DNA from: a virus
Lineage: Duplodnaviria; Heunggongvirae; Uroviricota; Caudoviricetes
Length of the DNA stretch: 9,992 nucleotides
Virus record (IMG/VR): IMGVR_UViG_2541047787_000003
Location: 1 to 9,992 of that record
Direction: 5' to 3' (one strand)
Shown here: piece after piece, positions 733 through 9,992 of the stretch
Position numbering within the stretch: position 1 is the stretch's first letter
Layout: each line of letters opens with the position of its first letter
The notes under the pieces: model-generated
What the model was told of the DNA's origin: nothing
The model's database searches: none
The model's input: the letters and a program-made list of their open reading frames with translations, nothing else
Position numbers and translations under genes: made by a program

Positions 733-3700
733 ATGGGTAAAGGCAGCAGTAAGGGGCATACCCCGCGCGAAGCGAAGGACAACCTGAAATCATCCCAGAT
801 GCTGAGCGTGATAGACGCCATCAGTGAAGGGCCGATTGAAGGTCCGGTGGATGGATTAAAAAGCGTACTGCTGAACAGTACGCCGGTGCTGGACAGTGAG
901 GGGAATACCAACATCGCCGGTGTCACGGTGGTGTTCCGGGCTGGTGAGCAGGAGCAGACTCCGCCGGAGGGATTTGAATCCTCCGGCTCCGAGACGGTGC
1001 TGGGTACGGAAGTGAAATATGACACGCCGATCACCCGGACCATCACGTCGGCAAACATTGACCGACTGCGTTTTACTTTCGGCGTGCAGGCACTGGTGGA
1101 AACCACCTCAAAGGGGGACAGGAATCCATCGGAAGTCCGCCTGCTGGTTCAGATACAACGTAACGGTGGCTGGGTGACGGAAAAGGACATCACCATTAAG
1201 GGTAAAACCACTTCACAGTATCTGGCCTCGGTGGTGGTGGATAACCTGCCGCCGCGCCCGTTCAGTATCCGGATGCGCAGGATGACGCCGGACAGCACCA
1301 CAGACCAGCTGCAGAACAAAACGCTCTGGTCGTCATACACCGAAATTATCGATGTGAAACAGTGCTACCCGAACACGGCACTGGTCGGCGTGCAGGTGGA
1401 CTCGGAGCAGTTCGGCAGCCAGCAGGTGAGCCGTAATTATCATCTTCGCGGGCGCATTCTGCAGGTGCCGTCGAACTATAACCCGCAGACGCGGCAATAC
1501 AGCGGTATCTGGGACGGAACGTTTAAGCCAGCATACAGCAACAACATGGCCTGGTGTCTGTGGGATATGCTGAACCATCCGCGCTACGGCATGGGGAAAC
1601 GTCTTGGTGCAGCAGATGTGGATAAATGGGCGCTGTATGTCATCGGCCAGTACTGCGACCAGTCGGTGCCGGACGGCTTTGGCGGCACGGAGCCGCGCAT
1701 CGCCTGTAATGCGTACCTGACCACACAGCGAAAGGCGTGGGATGTGCTCAGTGATTTCTGCTCGGCGATGCGCTGTATGCCGGTATGGAACGGGCAGACG
1801 CTGACATTCGTGCAGGACCGACCGTCGGATAAGGTGTGGACCTATAACCGCAGTAATGTGGTGATGCCGGATGATGGCGCGCCGTTCCGCTACAGCTTCA
1901 GCGCCCTGAAAGACCGCCATAATGCCGTTGAGGTGAACTGGATTGACCCGAACAACGGCTGGGAGACGGCGACAGAGCTTGTGGAGGATACGCAGGCTAT
2001 TGCCCGTTACGGTCGTAACGTCACGAAGATGGATGCTTTTGGCTGTACCAGCCGGGGGCAGGCACACCGCGCCGGGCTGTGGCTGATTAAAACAGAGCTG
2101 CTGGAAACGCAGACCGTGGACTTCAGCGTGGGCGCAGAAGGGCTTCGCCATGTGCCGGGCGATGTTATTGAAATCTGTGATGATGACTATGCCGGTATCA
2201 GCATCGGCGGGCGCGTGCTGGCGGTAAACAGCCAGACCCGGACGCTGACGCTCGACCGTGAAATCACGCTACCATCCTCCGGTACCACGCTGATAAGCCT
2301 GGTTGACGGAAGTGGCAATCCGGTCAGCGTGGAGGTTCAGTCCGTCACCGACGGCGTGAAGGTAAAAGTGAGCCGTGTTCCTGACGGCGTTGCCGGATAC
2401 AGCGTGTGGGGGCTGAAGTTGCCGACGCTGCGTCAGCGCCTGTTCCGCTGTGTGAGTATCCGTGAGAACGATGACGGCACGTATGCCATCACTGCCGTGC
2501 AGCATGTGCCGGAAAAAGAGGCCATCGTGGATAACGGGGCGCACTTTGACGGTGACCAGAGCGGCACGGTGAATGGTGTCACGCCGCCAGCAGTGCAGCA
2601 TCTGACCGCCGAAGTCACTGCAGACAGCGGGGAATATCAGGTGCTGGCGCGCTGGGACACACCGAAGGTGGTGAAGGGCGTGAGCTTCCTGCTCCGTCTG
2701 ACCGTGACAGCGGATGACGGCAGTGAGCGGCTGGTCAGCACGGCCCGGACGACGGAAACCACATACCGCTTCAGGCAGCTGGCGCTGGGGAACTACAGGC
2801 TGACAGTCCGGGCGGTAAATGCGTGGGGGCAGCAGGGAGATCCGGCGTCGGTATCGTTCCGGATTGCCGCACCGGCAGCACCGTCGAGGATTGAGCTGAC
2901 GCCGGGCTATTTTCAGATAACCGCCACGCCGCATCTTGCGGTTTATGATCCGACGGTACAGTTTGAGTTCTGGTTCTCGGAAAAGCGGATTGCGGATATC
3001 AGGCAGGTTGAAACCACAGCCCGCTATCTTGGTACGGCGCTGTACTGGATAGCCGCCAGTATCAATATCAAACCGGGCCATGATTATTACTTTTATATCC
3101 GCAGTGTGAACACCGTAGGCAAATCGGCATTTGTGGAGGCCGTCGGTCGGGCGAGCGATGATGCATCCGGCTATCTGGATTTTTTCAAAGGCGAGATAGG
3201 GAAAACCCATCTGGCTCAGGAGCTGTGGACGCAGATTGATAACGGTCAGCTTGCGCCTGACCTGGCTGAAATCAGGACGTCCATTACGGATGTCAGCAAT
3301 GAAATCACGCAGACCGTCAATAAGAAACTGGAAGACCAGAGTGCGGCAATTCAGCAGATACAGAAGGTTCAGGTTGATACAAATAATAACCTGAACAGCA
3401 TGTGGGCTGTGAAGCTGCAGCAGATGCAGGACGGACGCCTTTATATCGCGGGTATTGGTGCCGGTATTGAGAACACCCCTGACGGCATGCAGAGTCAGGT
3501 GCTGCTGGCGGCGGACAGGATTGCGATGGTTAATCCTGCGAATGGCAACACAAAACCGATGTTTGTTGGTCAGGGCGATCAGATATTCATGAACGACGTG
3601 TTCCTGAAACGCCTGACGGCTCCCACCATTACCAGCGGTGGAAATCCACCGGCATTTTCCCTGACACCGGACGGGCGACTGACGGCGAAAAATGCGGATA

Positions 3701-4212
3701 TCAGTGGCAGTGTGAATGCGAACGCCGGGACGCTCAACAATGTCACGATTAATGAAAACTGTCGGGTTCTGGGAAAACTGTCTGCGAACCAGATTGAAGG
3801 CGATCTCGTTAAAACAGTGGGCAAAGCTTTCCCCCGGGACTCCCGTGCACCGGAGCGGTGGCCATCAGGGACCATTACCGTCAGGGTTTATGACGATCAG
3901 CCGTTTGACCGGCAGATTGTTATTCCCGCGGTGGCGTTTCGTGGCGCTAAACATGAGCGGGAGAATAACGATATTTATTCGTCATGCCGCCTGATAGTGA
4001 AGAAAAACGGTGCTGAAATTTATAACCGTACCGCGCTGGATAATACGCTGGTTTATACAGGTGTTATTGATATGCCTGCTGGTCGCGGTCACATGACGCT
4101 GGAGTTTTCGGTATCAGCGTGGCTGGTAAATGACTGGTATCCCACAGCCAGTATCAGTGATTTGCTGGTTGTGGTGATGAAGAAATCCACAGCAGGTATC
4201 ACGATTAGCTGA
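733..4212 (+). CDS. J: Host specificity protein J (central tail fiber / tip attachment protein), 1159 aa
   Basis: ATG at 733 preceded by an RBS-like ggagcgtgagga. The long ORF translation ([20 protein letters not shown]...[55 protein letters not shown]...) matches lambda gpJ through the N-terminal and central parts as I recall them. Gene order I-J-lom is as in lambda. Confidence 0.95.
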
Positions 4213-4280: not shown

Positions 4281-4880
4281 ATGCGTAAAGTTTGTGCAGC
4301 CATTTTGTCCGCAGCCATCTGTCTGGCCGTATCCGGTGCGCCTGCATGGGCGTCTGAGCAGCAGGCCACACTGAGCGCAGGGTATCTTCATGCCCGTACG
4401 AACGCTCCCGGCAGCGATAATCTGAACGGGATTAACGTGAAATACCGTTATGAGTTTACGGACACGCTGGGGCTGATTACGTCATTCAGTTATGCCAACG
4501 CTGAAGATGAGCAAAAAACGCATTACAGCGATACCCGCTGGCATGAGGATTCCGTGCGTAACCGCTGGTTCAGCGTGATGGCGGGGCCGTCTGTGCGCGT
4601 GAATGAATGGTTCAGCGCGTATGCGATGGCAGGCGTGGCTTACAGCCGTGTGTCGACTTTTTCCGGGGATTATCTCCGCGTAACTGACAACAAGGGAAAA
4701 ACGCACGACGTGCTGACCGGAAGTGATGACGCTCGCCACAGTAACACCTCTCTGGCGTGGGGAGCTGGCGTGCAGTTTAACCCGACCGAATCCGTGGCCG
4801 TTGATGTCGCTTATGAAGGCTCCGGCAGTGGCAACTGGCGCACTGACGGGTTCATCGTGGGTGTCGGTTATAAGTTCTGA
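4281..4880 (+). CDS. lom: Outer membrane protein Lom (Ail/Lom family beta-barrel), 199 aa with N-terminal signal peptide
   Basis: ATG at 4281 with RBS gagagg 7 nt upstream. The translation starts MRKVCAAILSAAICLAVSGAPAWA (a signal peptide with an AxA cleavage motif) and ends ...DGFIVGVGYKF with a C-terminal aromatic residue, typical of outer-membrane beta-barrels. It matches lambda Lom as I recall it, in the same position after J. Confidence 0.9.
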   Translation: MRKVCAAILSAAICLAVSGAPAWASEQQATLSAGYLHARTNAPGSDNLNGINVKYRYEFTDTLGLITSFSYANAEDEQKTHYSDTRWHEDSVRNRWFSVMAGPSVRVNEWFSAYAMAGVAYSRVSTFSGDYLRVTDNKGKTHDVLTGSDDARHSNTSLAWGAGVQFNPTESVAVDVAYEGSGSGNWRTDGFIVGVGYKF

Positions 4881-4906: not shown

Positions 4907-4934
4907 AGCCCGCCGGTTCAGGCGGGCTTTTTTG
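4907..4934 (+). terminator. Rho-independent terminator downstream of lom
   Basis: Stem agcccgcc (4907-4914) / ggcgggct (4921-4928) with loop ggttca, followed by tttttgt (4929-4935). It lies between the lom stop and the side tail fiber start. Confidence 0.65.
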
Positions 4935-4944
4935 TGGGGTGAAT

Positions 4945-7900
4945 ATGGCAGTAAAGATTTCAGGTGTACTGAAAGACGGTGCAGGTAAACCGGTACAGAA
5001 CTGCACAATCCAGCTGAAAGCAAAACGTAACAGCACCACGGTGGTGGTGAACACGGTGGCATCTGAAAATCCGGATGAAGCCGGGCGTTACAGCATGGAC
5101 GTTGAGTACGGTCAGTACAGCGTTATTCTGTTGGTGGAAGGATTCCCGCCGTCACATGCCGGGACCATCACCGTGTATGAAGATTCCCGACCCGGTACGC
5201 TGAATGATTTTCTCGGTGCCATGACGGAGGATGATGCCCGTCCGGAGGCACTGCGCCGCTTTGAACTGATGGTGGAAGAGGTGGCGCGTAACGCGTCCGC
5301 AGTGGCGCAGAACACAGCAGCCGCGAAGAAGTCAGCCAGCGATGCCGGCACATCAGCCCGTGAGGCGGCAACCCGTGCGACTGATGCTGCAGGCTCAGCA
5401 CGTGCAGCCAGCACGTCAGCCGGACAGGCCGCGTCGTCGGCTCAGTCAGCGTCTTCCAGCGCAGGAACGGCATCAGCAAAGGCTACTGAAGCATCAAAAA
5501 GTGCTGCCGCTGCAGAGTCTTCAAAAAGCGCGGCAGCCACCAGTGCCGGTGCAGCGAAAACGTCGGAAATGAATGCCGCAGCATCACAAAAATCTGCGGC
5601 CACATCTGCATCCACCGCGACCACGAAAGCGTCAGAAGCTGCCACCTCAGCCCGGGATGCGTCGGCTTCAAAAGTGGCGGCAAAATCATCAGAAACGAGC
5701 GCTGCCTCGAGCGCCGGCAGTGCAGCTTCCTCGGCAACGGCAGCAGGAAATTCCGCGAAGGCCGCAAAAACGTCTGAGACGAATGCGGATAACAGCGCAC
5801 AGGCGGCAGCAGACTCACAAACTGCATCGGCAAACTCCGCGACAGCAGCCAAAAAATCAGAAACCAACGCGAAAAATAGTGAGTCAGCAGCAAAGGTCAG
5901 CGAAACCAACGCTAAAGCGTCAGAGAACAAGGCGAAAGAATATCTCGACAAGGTCGGGGGACTCGTCAGCCCGATGACGCAATACGATTGGCCTGTTGTT
6001 ACTGCTAGTGAGTCTCTTTACATCAAGATCGCGAAACTTTCCGATCCTGGAACCAGCAGAAGTCATGTAACGCTAATGGTTACTAACGCTGGTAACTACG
6101 GCTCCCCTTACGGAAACATTGACTTTATCGAGATCTCGGCGCGCGGTCTGCCTTCTTTGCTTAGTGCGGATAATGTTTCTCGTCATCTGAGTATACGCCG
6201 CTTAGGGTCAACCGGGCTGACCGATAACAACCAGATGCGTTACGGCCTGGTTAAAGGTGACGGCTTTATTGAGGTTTGGGCATTCCAGGGTGCGTTTATT
6301 AACGACGCAAAGGTTGCGGTGCTGGCGCAGACAACACTAAACACAGAATTATACATTCCAGACGGATTTGTTAAGCAAACCGCCGCGCCTTCTGGATATA
6401 TTGAAGGCAACGTTGTAAGGATTTACGACCAGGTAAACAAGCCGACTAAAGCAGATTTGGGTCTTTCTAATGCTATGCTTACAGGCGCTTTCGGTCTTGG
6501 CGGTAGCGGGATATCAACAAACGGCAAGATGAGCGATGTAGAGATCTTAAAAGCTCTGCGTGACAAAGGTGGTCATTTCTGGCGCGGTGATAAGCCGACC
6601 GGAAGCACGGCGACCATTTATAGCCACGGTTCTGGTATATTCTCGCGGTGCGGCGATACGTGGTCAGCGATCAATATCGACTACTCAACCGCGAAGATTA
6701 AGATCTATGCCGGCAACGATGCCCGGCTTAACAACGGGACTTTTAGCGTCAATGAGCTATACGGCTCGGCAAACAAGCCGTCGAAATCGGATGTTGGACT
6801 TGGCAACGTAACGAACGATGCGCAGGTAAAAAAAACCGGCGATACAATGACCGGTGACTTGACAATCAAAAAAGGTACACCGTCAGTCTTCCTGCGGGCA
6901 GACAGTGGAGTCACCGCTTTGCGGTTTTATACTGGCGATAACACAGAGCGCGGCATAATCTATGCTGGTCCTAACACTGATTCGCTTGGCGAAGTTCGCA
7001 TCAGGGCAAAGACAGCAGGGGGGACATCAGGAGGGGATCTTGTTGTTCGTCACGACGGGAGGGTTGAAGTCCGTGATCTCACAGTAGCGTATAAAATTAA
7101 AAGCAGAACGATTGAGATTGCAAATACCGACACTGACTCATCGGCAACTACGCTAAGCATCTATGGAGTACAGCACACGCCGTTGGTTTTAACGCGTTCT
7201 GGTTCTTCTGAAAATGTGTCCATTGGGTTTAAGTTAGACAACATGAACCCAAAGTATCTTGGAATTGATACTAATGGGGATCTGGCTTTTGGTGAGAGTC
7301 CTGATCAGAAACAAAACAGCAAATTGATCACGCAAGCGAAACTCGACAAGGGATTAACGATTGGTGGTCAACTGGCTTTCAAAGGTACGACAGCGTTTTC
7401 AGCCGTTGCTACGTTCAGTGCCGGGATAGCAGGAGCCATCGAGCCGGAAAACATTGACGGCCAGACGGTTAATCTTAACAACCTGACCATCATCAAGTCA
7501 GATGCCGGGGCAGTTAAATACTATATTTGTCCATCCTCTGCAGGTGGTGCAAATATCACCAACAAGCCTGACGGCGTAACAGGTAACTTTTTGCTCCGTG
7601 TTGAATCGACTCGTAAGGTTAGGGATTCAGATTATGCGAACATGCAAACGCTGATTAACAGCGACACAAAACGTATATACGTTCGCTTTGTTGTTAATGG
7701 AAACTGGACAGCGTGGAGTCAGGTTGTTGTTTCCGGATGGAATCAGGATGTAACCGTCAGGTCGTTAACCTCGACGACTCCATCAAAATTAGGTGGCGGG
7801 CGGATTGATGTGCTTGGAAGTACGTCAGATTATGGCAGCATGAATTGTACCGTTCGTGGTGTTGATAGCACTGGAACCAATTCGGCGTGGTCGGTAGGCA

Positions 7901-8724
7901 CATCAGAAAGCACAGGCAAAATGTTGTTCCTGAAAAACCACAGAAGCAGCGCTCAAGTGCTGTTAAATGGCGATGATGGCGCGGTTCAACTACTAAGTGG
8001 CACTGTTAACGGTGCTACAGCGCAGGCGCTAACCATCAACAAAGATGAGGTTAACTCAACTGCCGATTTAGTAATTAGAAAACAAACAGGGACTGGCAAT
8101 CGTTTTGCTTTACTTAATTCAGGTAATTCAGAACTACCAGTTAGTATCAGGGTGTGGGGTTCCAGTACTCGACAAAACGTTTTTGAGGTTGGCACGTCTG
8201 CTGCGTATCTGTTTTATGCGCAAAAAACAACAGACGGGCAAAACCTTACTGTAAACGGAAGTGTTAACTGCACCACACTGAATCAGTCATCAGACCGCAG
8301 ACTGAAAGAAAATATCGAGATTATCGATAACGCGACTGACGCAATCCGCAAAATTAATGGATACACGTACACGCTCAAGGAGAATGGGGCACATTGCGCC
8401 GGGGTTATAGCCCAGGAAGTTGAAGAGGCCATCCCGGAGGCCGTTGGTTCATTCATCCATTACGGTGAAGAGTTGCAAGGTCCGACCGTTGACGGCAACG
8501 AGCTACGCGAAGAAACGCGCTATCTTAATGTTGACTACGCCGCCGTGACGGGCTTACTTGTTCAGTTCGCCCGTGAAACAGATGATCGCGTTACCGCGCT
8601 GGAAGAGGAAAACACAACGCTACGTCAAAATCTGGCAACAGCAGACACCCGGATCAGCACTCTGGAAAATCAGGTAAGCGAACTGGTTGCACTTGTCCGG
8701 CAGTTAACAGGAAGCGAACATTGA
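4945..8724 (+). CDS. stf: Side tail fiber protein, chimeric: lambda Stf-like N-terminus, Ala/Ser-rich shaft, divergent distal receptor-binding region, and C-terminal self-cleaving intramolecular chaperone domain
   Basis: The ORF track calls 4939-8724 from a GTG, but the ATG at 4945 gives MAVKISGVLKDGAGKPVQNCTIQLKA..., which matches the lambda Stf N-terminus as recalled and has a ggggtg RBS upstream. The distal part carries fiber-type motifs (NKPSKSDVGLGNVTNDAQVKKTGDTMTGDLTI). The C-terminus carries the S-D-R-R-L-K-E-N motif and a terminal coiled coil typical of peptidase S74 chaperone domains. Confidence 0.85.
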   Translation: MAVKISGVLKDGAGKPVQNCTIQLKAKRNSTTVVVNTVASENPDEAGRYSMDVEYGQYSVILLVEGFPPSHAGTITVYEDSRPGTLNDFLGAMTEDDARPEALRRFELMVEEVARNASAVAQNTAAAKKSASDAGTSAREAATRATDAAGSARAASTSAGQAASSAQSASSSAGTASAKATEASKSAAAAESSKSAAATSAGAAKTSEMNAAASQKSAATSASTATTKASEAATSARDASASKVAAKSSETSAASSAGSAASSATAAGNSAKAAKTSETNADNSAQAAADSQTASANSATAAKKSETNAKNSESAAKVSETNAKASENKAKEYLDKVGGLVSPMTQYDWPVVTASESLYIKIAKLSDPGTSRSHVTLMVTNAGNYGSPYGNIDFIEISARGLPSLLSADNVSRHLSIRRLGSTGLTDNNQMRYGLVKGDGFIEVWAFQGAFINDAKVAVLAQTTLNTELYIPDGFVKQTAAPSGYIEGNVVRIYDQVNKPTKADLGLSNAMLTGAFGLGGSGISTNGKMSDVEILKALRDKGGHFWRGDKPTGSTATIYSHGSGIFSRCGDTWSAINIDYSTAKIKIYAGNDARLNNGTFSVNELYGSANKPSKSDVGLGNVTNDAQVKKTGDTMTGDLTIKKGTPSVFLRADSGVTALRFYTGDNTERGIIYAGPNTDSLGEVRIRAKTAGGTSGGDLVVRHDGRVEVRDLTVAYKIKSRTIEIANTDTDSSATTLSIYGVQHTPLVLTRSGSSENVSIGFKLDNMNPKYLGIDTNGDLAFGESPDQKQNSKLITQAKLDKGLTIGGQLAFKGTTAFSAVATFSAGIAGAIEPENIDGQTVNLNNLTIIKSDAGAVKYYICPSSAGGANITNKPDGVTGNFLLRVESTRKVRDSDYANMQTLINSDTKRIYVRFVVNGNWTAWSQVVVSGWNQDVTVRSLTSTTPSKLGGGRIDVLGSTSDYGSMNCTVRGVDSTGTNSAWSVGTSESTGKMLFLKNHRSSAQVLLNGDDGAVQLLSGTVNGATAQALTINKDEVNSTADLVIRKQTGTGNRFALLNSGNSELPVSIRVWGSSTRQNVFEVGTSAAYLFYAQKTTDGQNLTVNGSVNCTTLNQSSDRRLKENIEIIDNATDAIRKINGYTYTLKENGAHCAGVIAQEVEEAIPEAVGSFIHYGEELQGPTVDGNELREETRYLNVDYAAVTGLLVQFARETDDRVTALEEENTTLRQNLATADTRISTLENQVSELVALVRQLTGSEH
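5280..5950 (+). repeat. Low-complexity Ala/Ser/Thr/Lys-rich repetitive coding region (fiber shaft) within stf
   Basis: About 220 aa dominated by A, S, T and K with recurring K-x-S-E-(T/M)-N-A units, for example aaaacgtcggaaatgaatgcc, aaaacgtctgagacgaatgcg, aaaaaatcagaaaccaacgcg and aaggtcagcgaaaccaacgct. This explains the many spurious overlapping ORFs called here in other frames. Confidence 0.6.
8293..8721 (+). other. Predicted C-terminal intramolecular chaperone / autoproteolytic domain (peptidase S74-like) of the tail fiber, about 143 aa, released after trimerisation
   Basis: Motif NQSS|DRRLKENIEIID (codons at 8281-8319) has the Ser and Lys spaced 5 residues apart, as in the catalytic Ser-Lys dyad of endosialidase-type chaperone domains. 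It is followed by ...YLNVDYAAVTGLL... and a terminal heptad-like stretch RVTALEEENTTLRQNLATADTRISTLENQVSELVALVRQL. Confidence 0.6.
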
Positions 8725-8907
8725 TATCCTTCAAGCTCTGAAGGAGGCTGTTCCCGGTACGTTCAGACTGTTGTTGAGCTGGAAATCGCAACGGAGGAAG
8801 AAACCTTGTTGCTGGAAGCCTGGAAAAAGTATCGGGTGTTGCTGAACCGTGTTGATACATCAACTGCACCTGATATTGAGTGGCCTACGAACCCTGTCAG
8901 GGAGTAA
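8725..8907 (+). pseudogene. tfa: Remnant of a tail fiber assembly (tfa) gene 3' end, with no start codon
   Basis: The 60 codons immediately after the stf stop, in the same frame, read [60 protein letters not shown]. The ...[25 protein letters not shown]... portion is the conserved C-terminal signature of Tfa-family assembly chaperones as I recall it. There is no ATG/GTG/TTG start in this frame and no N-terminal Tfa domain. Confidence 0.6.
8779..8862 (+). repeat. Direct repeat copy A (tfa 3'-end sequence), partner at 9828-9911
   Basis: ctggaaatcgcaacggaggaagaaa (8779-8803) is identical to 9828-9852. Similarity continues through ...tatcgggtgttgctgaaccgtgttgatacatca, which pairs with ...tatcgggtattgttgaatcgagttgatacatca; by eye roughly 80% identical over about 84 nt. 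Confidence 0.7.
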
Positions 8908-8921
8908 TCATTGGGATTATG

Positions 8922-8961: not shown

Positions 8962-9630
8962 CTATTTTTTCCCTGAAGCGGAAAACATTACTACAGTACC
9001 TTGAACCTTGGTTTTAACATTCTCGAAATGCTCTGAGAGTATATGTGTTAAGCCTTCTTCGGAATCTTTTGTGTTTGAAAAGATACCTTTCTGATTGTAA
9101 ATGCGCATCAGTTTTTGACCGAAGCTATTGTGCACAACTCCATCGCCAAGAATTGTGGCTCCGTATAGAGTTCCATCGTCAGTTAAGGCCTGCGCCGCAT
9201 TGCGTATTACACAGCATTTTGTAGATATATTTCCAGGCAGGCAGTGAAGAAGGTAAAACATGGAAATGGAATCAAATTGACCATGTAACGCCGCGGGATA
9301 AGGTTCAAAAACATCATGGTTAATTTTATGTTTAATTTTTGATTCCCCAGCCCTTGTAGATGCCGCGTTCAGGCTAGCTTCGTTCAAATCCATTAAAGAT
9401 ATCAGACTACTCTCAGGTACGTGAGTAAGGTAAAACCCAGTTCCAACACCAATATCCAGATGGTTGTTACCTAAATGTTCCAGAAAGTGTGGAAGAAGGT
9501 GTTCCTTTGTAGGACATCCCCATGCAAGCCGATTTGATACTCCCAAAACCCACCAGTCATAAAGCTTTAGGGTAAGTGGTGTGTAAATTTTAGCCCCATC
9601 ATCTGTGTTTTTTTTCATTAATTTCACCAT
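8962..9630 (-). CDS. Class I SAM-dependent methyltransferase, 222 aa, substrate unknown; AT-rich cargo (moron) gene
   Basis: Minus-strand ORF from ATG (9628-9630) to TAG (8962-8964). It has Rossmann-fold methyltransferase motifs: motif I HLDIGVGTGFYL (GxGxG), an acidic residue ending beta-2 (LISLMDLNEAS), and motif II FDSISMFYLLHCLPG. No DPPY/NPPY or PCQ/ENV DNA-methyltransferase motifs were seen. Composition is visibly AT-richer than I, J and lom, and orientation is opposite to the late operon. Confidence 0.75.
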   Translation of the reverse strand: MVKLMKKNTDDGAKIYTPLTLKLYDWWVLGVSNRLAWGCPTKEHLLPHFLEHLGNNHLDIGVGTGFYLTHVPESSLISLMDLNEASLNAASTRAGESKIKHKINHDVFEPYPAALHGQFDSISMFYLLHCLPGNISTKCCVIRNAAQALTDDGTLYGATILGDGVVHNSFGQKLMRIYNQKGIFSNTKDSEEGLTHILSEHFENVKTKVQGTVVMFSASGKK

Positions 9631-9686: not shown

Positions 9687-9992
9687 ATGCTGCCGCAGCA
9701 TAGCGATATTGAAATAGCATGGTATGCTTCGATACAGCAGGAGCCGAATGGCTGGAAGACCGTCACCACACAGTTCTACATCCAGGAATTCAGTGAGTAT
9801 ATTGCGCCACTGCAGGATGCTGTAGATCTGGAAATCGCAACGGAGGAAGAAAGATCGTTGCTGGAGGCATGGAATAAATATCGGGTATTGTTGAATCGAG
9901 TTGATACATCAGTAGCTCTGGGTATGAAGCTGTTTGTAACTCATGTTACAGTAACAGCCATTACTATCTCGAAGGTGCAAAATGTATATTGA
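9687..9992 (+). CDS. Small Tfa-like protein (tail fiber assembly C-terminal motif with divergent tail), 101 aa; possibly a truncated or alternative tfa
   Basis: ATG at 9687 with RBS aagggg 5-6 nt upstream; stop TGA at 9990-9992. The translation contains ...[29 protein letters not shown]..., homologous to the Tfa C-terminal signature, but then diverges ([26 protein letters not shown]) and lacks the terminal APDIEWP motif. It is too short for a full Tfa. Confidence 0.5.
9828..9911 (+). repeat. Direct repeat copy B (tfa 3'-end sequence), partner at 8779-8862
   Basis: See copy A. The 25-nt core ctggaaatcgcaacggaggaagaaa is identical, with flanking similarity to ...gttgatacatca. Confidence 0.7.

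Follow-up and report, generated by a model that had tools for sequence, protein, structure and literature searches.

The lambda-type side tail fibre (Stf) of a lambdoid prophage, encoded within the 9,992-nucleotide stretch of viral DNA analysed here (the window), very likely ends in a self-cleaving intramolecular chaperone of the Peptidase_S74 (S74) type with a Ser-Lys dyad. We consider this the best explanation of the locus as a whole. The features on which it is built are listed below, with residues numbered from the ATG at 4945.

4945..8724, + strand: stf, the side tail fibre gene, 1259 codons plus a TGA stop in a single open frame
4945..5346, + strand: lambda-type Stf N-terminal (tail-attachment) domain, aa 1-134 (PF08400)
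8287..8292, + strand: predicted scissile bond S1115/S1116, from alignment to S16 gp37 and the pb1 and MyRF precedents
8290..8292, + strand: putative catalytic nucleophile S1116, position 1 of the Pfam S74 profile, invariant in 38 homologues and kept in phage Ayreon
8305..8307, + strand: putative general base K1121 (Ser +5), invariant in the 38 homologues
8290..8721, + strand: C-terminal intramolecular chaperone domain, aa 1116-1259 (Pfam core aa 1116-1167; AlphaFold; Foldseek)
8443..8532, + strand: long beta-hairpin ('tentacle'), aa 1167-1196 (model strands 87-97 and 107-116)
8536..8709, + strand: C-terminal helix, aa 1198-1255 (model helix 118-175), predicted to form a trimeric coiled coil

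The C-terminal chaperone domain and its Ser-Lys pair

An earlier note on this DNA had placed a Ser-Lys dyad of the kind found in endosialidase and pb1-type chaperones within a motif SSDRRLKEN. Read in the frame that opens with the ATG at 4945, 8287-8313 encodes exactly these nine residues (aa 1115-1123), of which the first seven are S1115, S1116, D1117, R1118, R1119, L1120 and K1121. The interval 8287-8307 assigned to the motif begins at the right position but stops early, as it covers the seven codons S1115-K1121 while the nine-residue motif runs to 8313. The five-residue spacing between Ser and Lys was correctly read and corresponds to S1116 and K1121.

Spacing by itself carries little information in this protein. 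The pattern S-x4-K occurs 13 times, against 7.3 +/- 2.5 in composition-preserving shuffles, and is not usefully above chance; it is the domain-level match that makes the occurrence at position 1116 non-random. Only this occurrence has the context SD..LK. The excess of 13 over the roughly seven expected would suit a chance motif in a Ser/Lys-rich protein, yet the domain HMM, residue conservation, Foldseek and profile-to-PDB alignments all converge on the single occurrence at S1116, which refutes the chance reading and leaves it practically no probability.

The search with the Peptidase_S74 profile, proposed as a check in the earlier note, was carried out and returned PF13884 at 60.1 bits (E = 2.6e-16), nearly three times the gathering score of 22. 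Lack of such a match, which that note named as a refutation, is thus not what was observed. The alignment places aa 1116-1167 on profile positions 1-57 of 58, with S1116 at position 1, and identifies the domain as S74. At the extreme C-terminus of the fibre (aa 1116-1259 of 1259), the domain has 144 residues, a mass of 16.0 kDa and a pI of 4.5 (computed). Across 38 homologues, down to approximately 26% identity, S1116, D1117, K1121, G1153 and I1155 are the same in every sequence, and only S1115 of the serine pair changes. K1121 corresponds to endoNF K916, MyRF K592 and pb1 K1269. The invariance of S1116 and K1121, in agreement with the fold and the profile alignments, supports the proposed endosialidase/pb1-type dyad, with these two residues as the predicted catalytic pair that opens the chaperone domain.

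The fold of the region was examined in an AlphaFold monomer model, which had a mean pLDDT of 84.7 and exceeded 90 over most of aa 1116-1259; the 35 residues before the predicted cut were poorly modelled (pLDDT 39-66). The order of the modelled elements, an alpha/beta body followed by the long hairpin and the long C-terminal helix, is that expected for the family, and weak coiled-coil Pfam matches were obtained at aa 1216-1257. When the model was compared with the PDB by Foldseek, all 11 matches at E < 0.01 were chaperone/ICA domains (7dc3, 3gw6 and 3gud, representing the MyRF ICA, K1F endosialidase and the GA-1 neck appendage), and the next matches jumped to E > 0.5. TM-scores to the solved chaperones reached only 0.36-0.59, a modest range but one to be anticipated when an elongated protomer is modelled without its partners in the trimer. 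A profile search of PDB sequences recovered S16 gp37 (7e-25), the MyRF ICA (8.5e-15) and the GA-1 chaperone, and the motif aligned residue for residue with all three. T5 pb1 (4UW8) was recovered neither by the PDB sequence profile nor by Foldseek, so that the link to T5-type fibres rests on tblastn matches of approximately 29% identity to T5-like L-shaped fibres and on shared family membership.

Comparison with these relatives indicates what is shared and what is particular to this fibre. Of the solved structures, S16 gp37 (PDB 6F45), the distal subunit of a Salmonella phage long tail fibre, is the closest in sequence and was already found with a single sequence (E = 2.8e-9). The two proteins share the motif (NVS^SDRRIKKDI in S16, NQS^SDRRLKENI here), the sequence GxIAQEVE and the C-terminal helix. 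They differ in that S16 gp37 comes from a T-even myovirus, its cleavage exposing a docking surface for the separate adhesin gp38, whereas the chaperone here is longer (144 aa), has a longer hairpin and helix and is followed by no gp38-like gene. With T5 pb1 and K1F endosialidase the domain shares PF13884, the Ser/Lys+5 dyad, the order of elements and the placement at the very C-terminal end of a trimeric fibre or spike, although identity to 3gw6 is only 14-16% in the structural alignment and neither the pb1 bullet domain nor the endosialidase stalk precedes the chaperone. The top Foldseek match was the MyRF ICA (PDB 7DC3; E = 7e-6, 25% identity), in which S587/K592 is the equivalent dyad and Y615, near the cut, aligns with Y1142 here. 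Unlike the fibre, MyRF is a eukaryotic ER-membrane transcription factor, whose hairpin takes the shape of a 'donut' instead of a tentacle and whose ICA domain stays on the membrane while the N-terminal part is released (PMC8326128).

Predicted cleavage and maturation of the fibre

Position of the cut was predicted from characterized relatives. S16 gp37 is cut between two serines, with release of the C-terminal ~113 residues (PMC7917993), and since its site DLNVS^SDRRIKK aligns with TLNQS^SDRRLKE here, a cut is predicted at S1115/S1116. Such a cut would leave aa 1-1115 (115.7 kDa) as the mature fibre and set free a chaperone of 144 aa and 16.0 kDa. The earlier note had the mature fibre ending near residue 1116 and a C-terminal fragment of ~143 aa; by the cut-site precedents of S16 gp37, T5 pb1 and MyRF both values are off by one. 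A genuine S74 chaperone cut after S1116, as those values would require, is unlikely. The closest solved relative, S16 gp37, carries a near-identical motif and is cut between its two serines. T5 pb1 is cut at Thr1263/Ser1264 and the Ser departs with the chaperone (PMC4690869), as it does in K1F. The MyRF cut was located at P586/S587 by mass spectrometry and is abolished in S587A and K592A (PMC8326128), and the solved GA-1 chaperone chain likewise begins with Ser, its opening 'SDERHK' being aligned to S1116. A search of the literature on lambdoid Stf with an S74 or intramolecular chaperone, Ayreon, mEp460 and PhiR70 returned no processing experiments.

By homology with these systems, we propose the following route to the mature fibre. 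The C-terminal helices would associate into a trimeric coiled coil and bring three nascent chains into register, in the way that a C-terminal triple coiled coil drives trimerisation in pb1 (PMC4690869) and MyRF (PMC8326128). The beta-hairpins would then embrace the distal fibre domain and template its folding; in pb1 and endoNF the hairpin embraces the preceding fibre domain (PMC4690869). Once the trimer is correctly folded, K1121 would activate the S1116 hydroxyl and the chain would be cut at S1115/S1116. Release of the acidic 144-aa chaperone would unmask a fibre tip ending in ...CTTLNQS(1115), so that the mature virion protein would comprise aa 1-1115 and the 16-kDa fragment would be absent from virions. 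With the chaperone built in, a separate Tfa, on which lambda-type fibres normally rely, would be dispensable, and only tfa remnants are left.

In endoNF and pb1, a stalk residue of the neighbouring subunit (R897 and R1250, respectively) couples cleavage to correct folding of the trimer. This Arg lies 14 residues before the Ser and is absent here, where position -14 is T1102. As read from the monomer sequence, the nearest Arg upstream of S1116 is R1076, with none within 39 residues. Given the key role ascribed to endoNF R897 (PMC8326128), the chaperone might fold the fibre but stay attached, catalytically silent for lack of a stalk residue to complete the active site. We regard such silence as improbable. 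MyRF cleaves without any stalk residue (PMC8326128), and the stalk Arg is thus not a universal feature; S16 gp37, of the same distal sequence type, is cleaved. Strict conservation of Ser, Asp and Lys over the whole homologue set implies selection for catalysis. Moreover, the S1264A substitution blocks cleavage of pb1, and the uncleaved form fails to compete for receptor or to block infection (PMC4690869), so a retained domain here would probably disable the tip. Self-cleavage therefore remains the preferred reading.

A further function could be imagined for the cleavage products. In S16 gp37, the separate adhesin gp38 docks on a strand ...CRDLNVS, to which the tip strand here, ...CTTLNQS, is similar. 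Once exposed, this tip might bind an adhesin encoded elsewhere; alternatively, the acidic 16-kDa trimer could have a function after its release. If either were true, the fibre would be more than a standard self-contained one. No gp38-like adhesin gene is adjacent, the downstream region consisting of tfa remnants and an opposite-strand methyltransferase, and we hold both ideas to be very improbable.

The side tail fibre gene and its tfa remnants

The gene carrying the domain was characterized over its full length. Translation from the ATG at 4945 meets no internal stops in 4945-8724, and the full-length protein has a computed mass of 131.7 kDa. Its N-terminus matches PF08400 (phage_tail_N) at 240.5 bits over profile positions 1-134 of 134, and PHROG tail-fibre families match the protein. 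Over its first ~840 nt, stf shares 94-95% identity with many lambdoid phages. The identical RefSeq locus has the gene order L-K-I-J-lom-stf, and chromosomal prophages of E. coli hold the gene at 100% identity. On this sequence evidence the reading frame is identified as the Stf of a lambdoid E. coli prophage of siphovirus type. The domain preceding the chaperone is T4 gp34-like at the sequence level. No meaningful family emerged when the fibre was scanned against NCBIfam, where the only match, to SMC on the Ala/Ser-rich shaft, fell below threshold, and a search of aa 601-1115 of the fibre body against PDB sequences gave only chance-level antibody and FKBP matches. PGAP attaches the label 'pyocin knob' to the fibre, for which the same PDB search gave no support. 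Tandem Repeats Finder detected no DNA repeats in the gene; the Ala/Ser shaft, which looks repetitive, is therefore compositional.

A full-length orthologue is present in Escherichia phage Ayreon (MF807953, ATP61598.1). The two genes are 85% identical in nucleotides from end to end, and the last 179 residues of the proteins, where the Ayreon motif reads SSDRDLK, are likewise 85% identical. The Ayreon protein has 1252 aa, against 1259 here, and carries no annotation beyond 'side tail fiber protein'. Ayreon itself is a viable temperate siphovirus that was isolated on E. coli K-12.

Public annotation treats the locus differently. In PGAP, 4945-5922 carries the remark 'incomplete, missing C-terminus' and another CDS opens at 5974, and RefSeq accordingly has a pseudo N-terminal fragment and a separate 916-aa S74 peptidase. 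Taken at face value, this split would make the region two genes, or a decayed pseudogene from which no fibre is made. The placement of the locus fits decay, as ompT and envY lie downstream and the site is that of the defective prophage DLP12 in E. coli K-12. Against this, the frame is open through all 1259 codons, the viable phage Ayreon has its full-length orthologue as one CDS, and at least 305 genomes retain at least 80% of the gene. In addition, one RefSeq record gives a homologue a name beginning 'prophage tail fiber N-terminal domain and S74 family ...', which seems to denote the combined architecture. A split or decayed gene is accordingly improbable, the division into a pseudogene and an 'S74 peptidase' being an annotation artefact. 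The issue bears on expression and not on the identity of the motif.

Downstream of stf, the window contains two pieces of the tail fibre assembly gene tfa.

8725..8910, + strand: tfa remnant, the last ~45 codons (PF02413 Caudo_TAP), directly after the stf stop and in frame
9687..9992: second tfa C-terminal remnant (Caudo_TAP profile positions 75-121)

The PF02413 match at 8725-8907 scored 72.7 bits and covers only profile positions 86-130 of 131. PGAP marks both pieces 'tail fiber assembly protein, missing N-terminus', and no intact tfa gene was found downstream of stf, only these C-terminal remnants. The stf stop/tfa-remnant junction is almost base-for-base the same in Ayreon. That ribosomes might read through the TGA of stf into this in-frame remnant was considered and rejected as meaningful: a shared frame is a 1-in-3 coincidence, the remnant comprises no more than the final ~45 codons of tfa, and recoding has no support.

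Lambda Stf is assembled with a separately encoded Tfa. The locus here resembles lambda Stf/Tfa in its PF08400 N-terminus and in the gene order I-J-lom-stf, and differs from it in having a built-in S74 chaperone and tfa only as C-terminal remnants. Because tfa persists only in this form, the gene represents an Stf variant with a built-in chaperone. In other fibres, too, the chaperone is either built in as a domain or supplied separately as Tfa (bioRxiv 10.1101/2024.09.12.612763). The locus may record a switch from separate Tfa to built-in S74 chaperone in lambdoid side fibres, a more modest reading but one better supported than an adhesin-recruiting tip or a functional free trimer. Such a switch could have come about by recombination at two conserved sequences, the 5' end of stf and the 3' end of tfa.

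Distribution and practical use

The feature is already known and ordinary, and it is labelled in public annotation, where RefSeq/PGAP names the identical sequence 'S74 family peptidase'. Its value is practical only and it opens no new biological question. For proteomics, the virion protein would be expected at 116 kDa and not at 132 kDa. For the engineering of lambda-type side fibres for host-range retargeting, the C-terminus could serve as a cassette movable without a tfa gene; a preprint on lambda-vector engineering does not mention chaperones. Among complete E. coli genomes, 813 of 5426 carry the module; by tblastn it is also present in 867 phage records, which include T5-like L-shaped fibres and T-even distal fibres.

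The side tail fibre gene and its neighbourhood

The frame that opens with the ATG at 4945 and closes with the TGA at 8722-8724 comprises 1259 codons and, on translation, shows no internal stops (residues are numbered from this ATG). The prophage tail fibre N-terminal domain PF08400 covers residues 1-134 over its entire profile and, together with the place of the frame after I, J and Ail/Lom, forms the basis on which we assign 4945-8724 to a lambdoid prophage as its side tail fibre (Stf) gene.

Features of the window around stf and within it
1-672: lambda tail assembly protein I, upstream neighbour of stf
733-4212: tip attachment protein J, upstream neighbour of stf
4281-4880: Ail/Lom outer-membrane protein, upstream neighbour directly before stf
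~5290-5950 (residues ~115-335): Stf shaft, rich in Ala, Ser, Lys and Thr
8725-8910: first tfa remnant, last ~45 tfa codons, beginning immediately 3' of the stf TGA and in frame with stf
8962-9630, minus strand: class I SAM-dependent methyltransferase, sandwiched between both tfa remnants
9687-9992, plus strand: second tfa remnant, Caudo_TAP profile positions 75-121

Several complete E. coli genomes carry chromosomal DNA that is 100% identical to the gene. At the identical RefSeq locus (L001), ompT, envY and ybcH follow just downstream, the place at which K-12 has the defective prophage DLP12. The closest isolated phage, Ayreon, matches the entire gene at 85% identity and carries it annotated as a single 1252-aa side tail fiber protein; it is a viable temperate siphovirus whose isolation host is a K-12 derivative (PMC5764929). 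The RefSeq annotation pipeline (PGAP) divides our frame in two: 4945-5922 (L001 6001-6978) becomes a pseudogene, 'prophage tail fiber N-terminal domain-containing protein, missing C-terminus', while 5974-8724 (L001 7030-9780) is a CDS of its own for a 916-aa 'pyocin knob domain-containing S74 family peptidase'. Because the frame has no stop and the Ayreon orthologue is annotated as one CDS, this division seems to be an artefact that evidence-driven annotation produced on a mosaic gene. A gene that is truly split, or that is not expressed, is very improbable, and either would bear on expression in this strain and not on the nature of the motif described below.

Between lom and stf, at 4915-4950, the sequence is GC-rich and then passes into a run of T (GGCGGGCTTTTTTGTGGGG), and Ayreon has an annotated terminator at the matching position. 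A GTG at 4939, two codons 5' of the ATG, is an alternative stf start. An IS2 element interrupts the orthologous fibre gene in strain 2017-03-3CC (genome match H13, NZ_AP027783.1 2661693-2666808).

The shaft has a weak SMC-like coiled-coil match. Tandem Repeats Finder found no DNA repeats in stf or its shaft, and the repetitiveness of the shaft is therefore compositional and not a product of recent duplication. An NCBIfam scan of the fibre returned nothing useful, and a PDB sequence search with the fibre body gave chance matches only. Residues ~1060-1144 (window ~8122-8376; SIRVWGSSTRQNVFEVGTSAAYLFYAQK...), the stretch that leads into the predicted cleavage site, resemble at the sequence level part of gp34, the proximal long tail fibre of T4 (PDB 4uxe, 5nxf and 9x3r; E 1.5e-4 to 1.5e-3). 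These matches indicate a lambda-type Stf onto which a segment of T-even-type fibre has been grafted.

The Ser-Lys motif and the Peptidase_S74 domain

Translation of 8287-8313 in the stf frame confirmed the motif SSDRRLKEN (S1115-S1116-D-R-R-L-K1121-E-N), which the earlier note had read as an autocleavage site of a chaperone domain. The span it gave, 8287-8307, covers only the first seven of the nine codons; the Ser and Lys that it described as five residues apart are S1116 and K1121. The pattern S-x4-K occurs 13 times in Stf, with 9 of the 13 in the Ala/Ser/Lys-rich shaft; shuffled sequences contain it 7.3 +/- 2.5 times. The spacing alone is barely informative in so Ser- and Lys-rich a protein, and the significance of the motif therefore hangs on its domain context. 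That it is itself a chance S-x4-K has already been refuted, and the probability left to this reading is negligible.

The Pfam search proposed for the motif gave a significant match to PF13884 Peptidase_S74 ('chaperone of endosialidase') at residues 1116-1167 (60.1 bits against a gathering score of 22, E = 2.6e-16), with profile position 1 at S1116. A query with the last 179 Stf residues against the protein database returned 110 homologues, nearly all with PF13884. An alignment (A1) of 38 of these, with identity down to ~26% and including metagenomic and non-enterobacterial sequences, contains only five invariant columns (S1116, D1117, K1121, G1153 and I1155), and the position of S1115 varies freely. 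A monomeric AlphaFold model of residues 1081-1259, built from this alignment, has a mean pLDDT of 84.7 and consists of a small alpha/beta body, a long beta-hairpin (residues 1167-1196) and a 58-residue C-terminal helix, an order of elements that matches the one published for the pb1 and endosialidase chaperones (PMC4690869). All 11 Foldseek matches of the model to the PDB at E < 0.01 are intramolecular-chaperone/ICA domains, namely those of MyRF (7dc3), K1F endosialidase (3gw6) and the GA-1 neck appendage (3gud); the next match has E = 0.57. Searched against PDB sequences, the alignment profile found S16 gp37 (6f45, 7e-25), the MyRF ICA (8.5e-15), the GA-1 chaperone and another tail fibre (8jov). 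In S16 gp37, 8jov and GA-1 the motif's Ser, Asp and Lys are all aligned, while the MyRF crystal chain has Ala at the Ser position and aligned Asp and Lys.

The chaperone-domain reading is thus supported by the family profile, the conserved dyad, the fold and the residue-level PDB alignment. HMM family membership, dyad conservation, fold and C-terminal position are what the analysis itself establishes; by all computationally testable features the Stf C-terminus belongs to the Peptidase_S74 / C-terminal intramolecular chaperone family, and its autoproteolysis is predicted.

In the E. coli Stf chaperones the hairpin is ~25 residues longer (GEELQGPTVDGNELREETRYLNVDY) than in most distant homologues (A1 columns ~455-480, residues ~1170-1195), and the C-terminal helix is 3-4 heptads longer than in the sister E. 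coli group P0037 and P0041 (A1 columns ~520-565, residues ~1225-1259). These differences suggest that tentacle and coiled-coil lengths may be tuned to the fibre domain served.

Predicted cut site and maturation

In T5 pb1 the processing site lies between Thr1263 and Ser1264; S1264A blocks processing, and the Ser departs with the chaperone, as it does in K1F (PMC4690869). MyRF is cut at P586|S587, as located by mass spectrometry, and loses cleavage in S587A and K592A; these two residues have been equated with S911 and K916 of endoNF (PMC8326128). A passage of PMC7917993 citing Dunne et al. 2018 gives the S16 gp37 cut as DLNVS^SDRRIKK, which aligns column for column with TLNQS^SDRRLKE of Stf, and the solved chain of the GA-1 chaperone begins SDERHK. 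The three cuts and the GA-1 chain start agree, and by analogy the scissile bond of Stf is predicted to be S1115|S1116. The predicted mature fibre comprises residues 1-1115 (computed 115.7 kDa, pI 8.7) and the predicted released domain residues 1116-1259 (144 aa, computed 16.0 kDa, pI 4.5). Judged by the homologous cuts, the mature end at 1116 and the fragment of ~143 aa proposed in the earlier note are each off by one. The Ser of phi29 was modelled on the mature side in weak density, which leaves a small probability for a cut after S1116.

The course of events would follow pb1, endoNF, S16 and MyRF. The C-terminal helices would nucleate a trimeric coiled coil, the hairpins would clasp the distal fibre domain and serve as the template for its folding, and K1121 would activate S1116 in the correctly assembled trimer only; the chaperone would then be released and the fibre tip unmasked. 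Receptor competition by pb1 is a property of the cleaved form only (PMC4690869). In endoNF and pb1 the active site is completed by an Arg that lies 14 positions ahead of the Ser and is supplied by a neighbouring stalk subunit (PMC4690869, PMC8326128). At -14 from S1116 this stalk Arg is absent in Stf, where T1102 takes the position and the nearest upstream Arg is R1076. Its absence need not be disqualifying, because MyRF cleaves without any stalk residue and uses aromatic residues instead, including Y615 (PMC8326128), which aligns with Y1142 of Stf. The 35 residues before the predicted cut are poorly modelled, which is to be expected when a trimer of intertwined chains is predicted from one chain. 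The papers searched contain no account of any lambdoid Stf of this kind being processed. That the domain is retained and does not cleave is highly unlikely in view of the strictly conserved Ser, Asp and Lys and of the S16 precedent.

The tfa remnants and spread of the module

The first tfa remnant corresponds to Caudo_TAP profile positions 86-130 of 131 (72.7 bits) and, unless the internal TTG at 8806 is counted, has no plausible start codon of its own. The second remnant shares 78% identity with it across an aligned core of 36 residues, and PGAP marks both pieces as lacking N-termini. The order remnant, methyltransferase, remnant resembles tfaD-ybcY-tfaX at the DLP12 end in E. coli K-12. The intact tfa of lambda-type Stf is missing here, and the protein is therefore a Stf variant with a cis chaperone. 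The junction between the stf end and the remnant is nearly base-for-base alike in Ayreon, whose Stf retains SSDRDLK; this phage is viable, and a functional phage thus manages with a built-in chaperone and without an intact tfa beside stf. Other coliphage fibres carry either a built-in chaperone or a separate Tfa (bioRxiv 10.1101/2024.09.12.612763), a pattern that the Ayreon arrangement fits. The remnant at 8725-8910 is probably the scar of the recombination that imported the fibre C-terminus with its chaperone.

At least 80% of stf was found in 305 of 5426 complete E. coli genomes, whereas the chaperone-coding 438 nt were found in 813. In the phages mEp460 and PhiR70_1 the match extends over only 51% and 38% of stf, in two aligned pieces each, and the PhiR70_1 chaperone is 88% identical to that of Stf. 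Such distributions mark the S74 chaperone as a mobile module. A protein search found it in 867 phage records, which include T5-like L-shaped fibres, T-even distal fibres, rV5-like fibres and endosialidase-like proteins. The Stf variant with a cis S74 chaperone is common and already recognised; RefSeq applies S74 names both to the identical sequence and to a homologue ('prophage tail fiber N-terminal domain and S74 family ...', the remainder of the name not being displayed), so the finding is correct but already known. Three points deserve mention: the cut site corrected by one residue, the PGAP artefact and the sign of module exchange left by the tfa remnant.

Several of the database entries P0012, P0013, P0030, P0069, P0071 and P0073 show the chaperone tail fused with domains foreign to it (phage tail tip, ParB, terminase) and probably arose as chimeras in gene calling or assembly. 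The name 'bZIP transcription factor', given to one alphaproteobacterial S74 protein, apparently stems from the coiled-coil helix.
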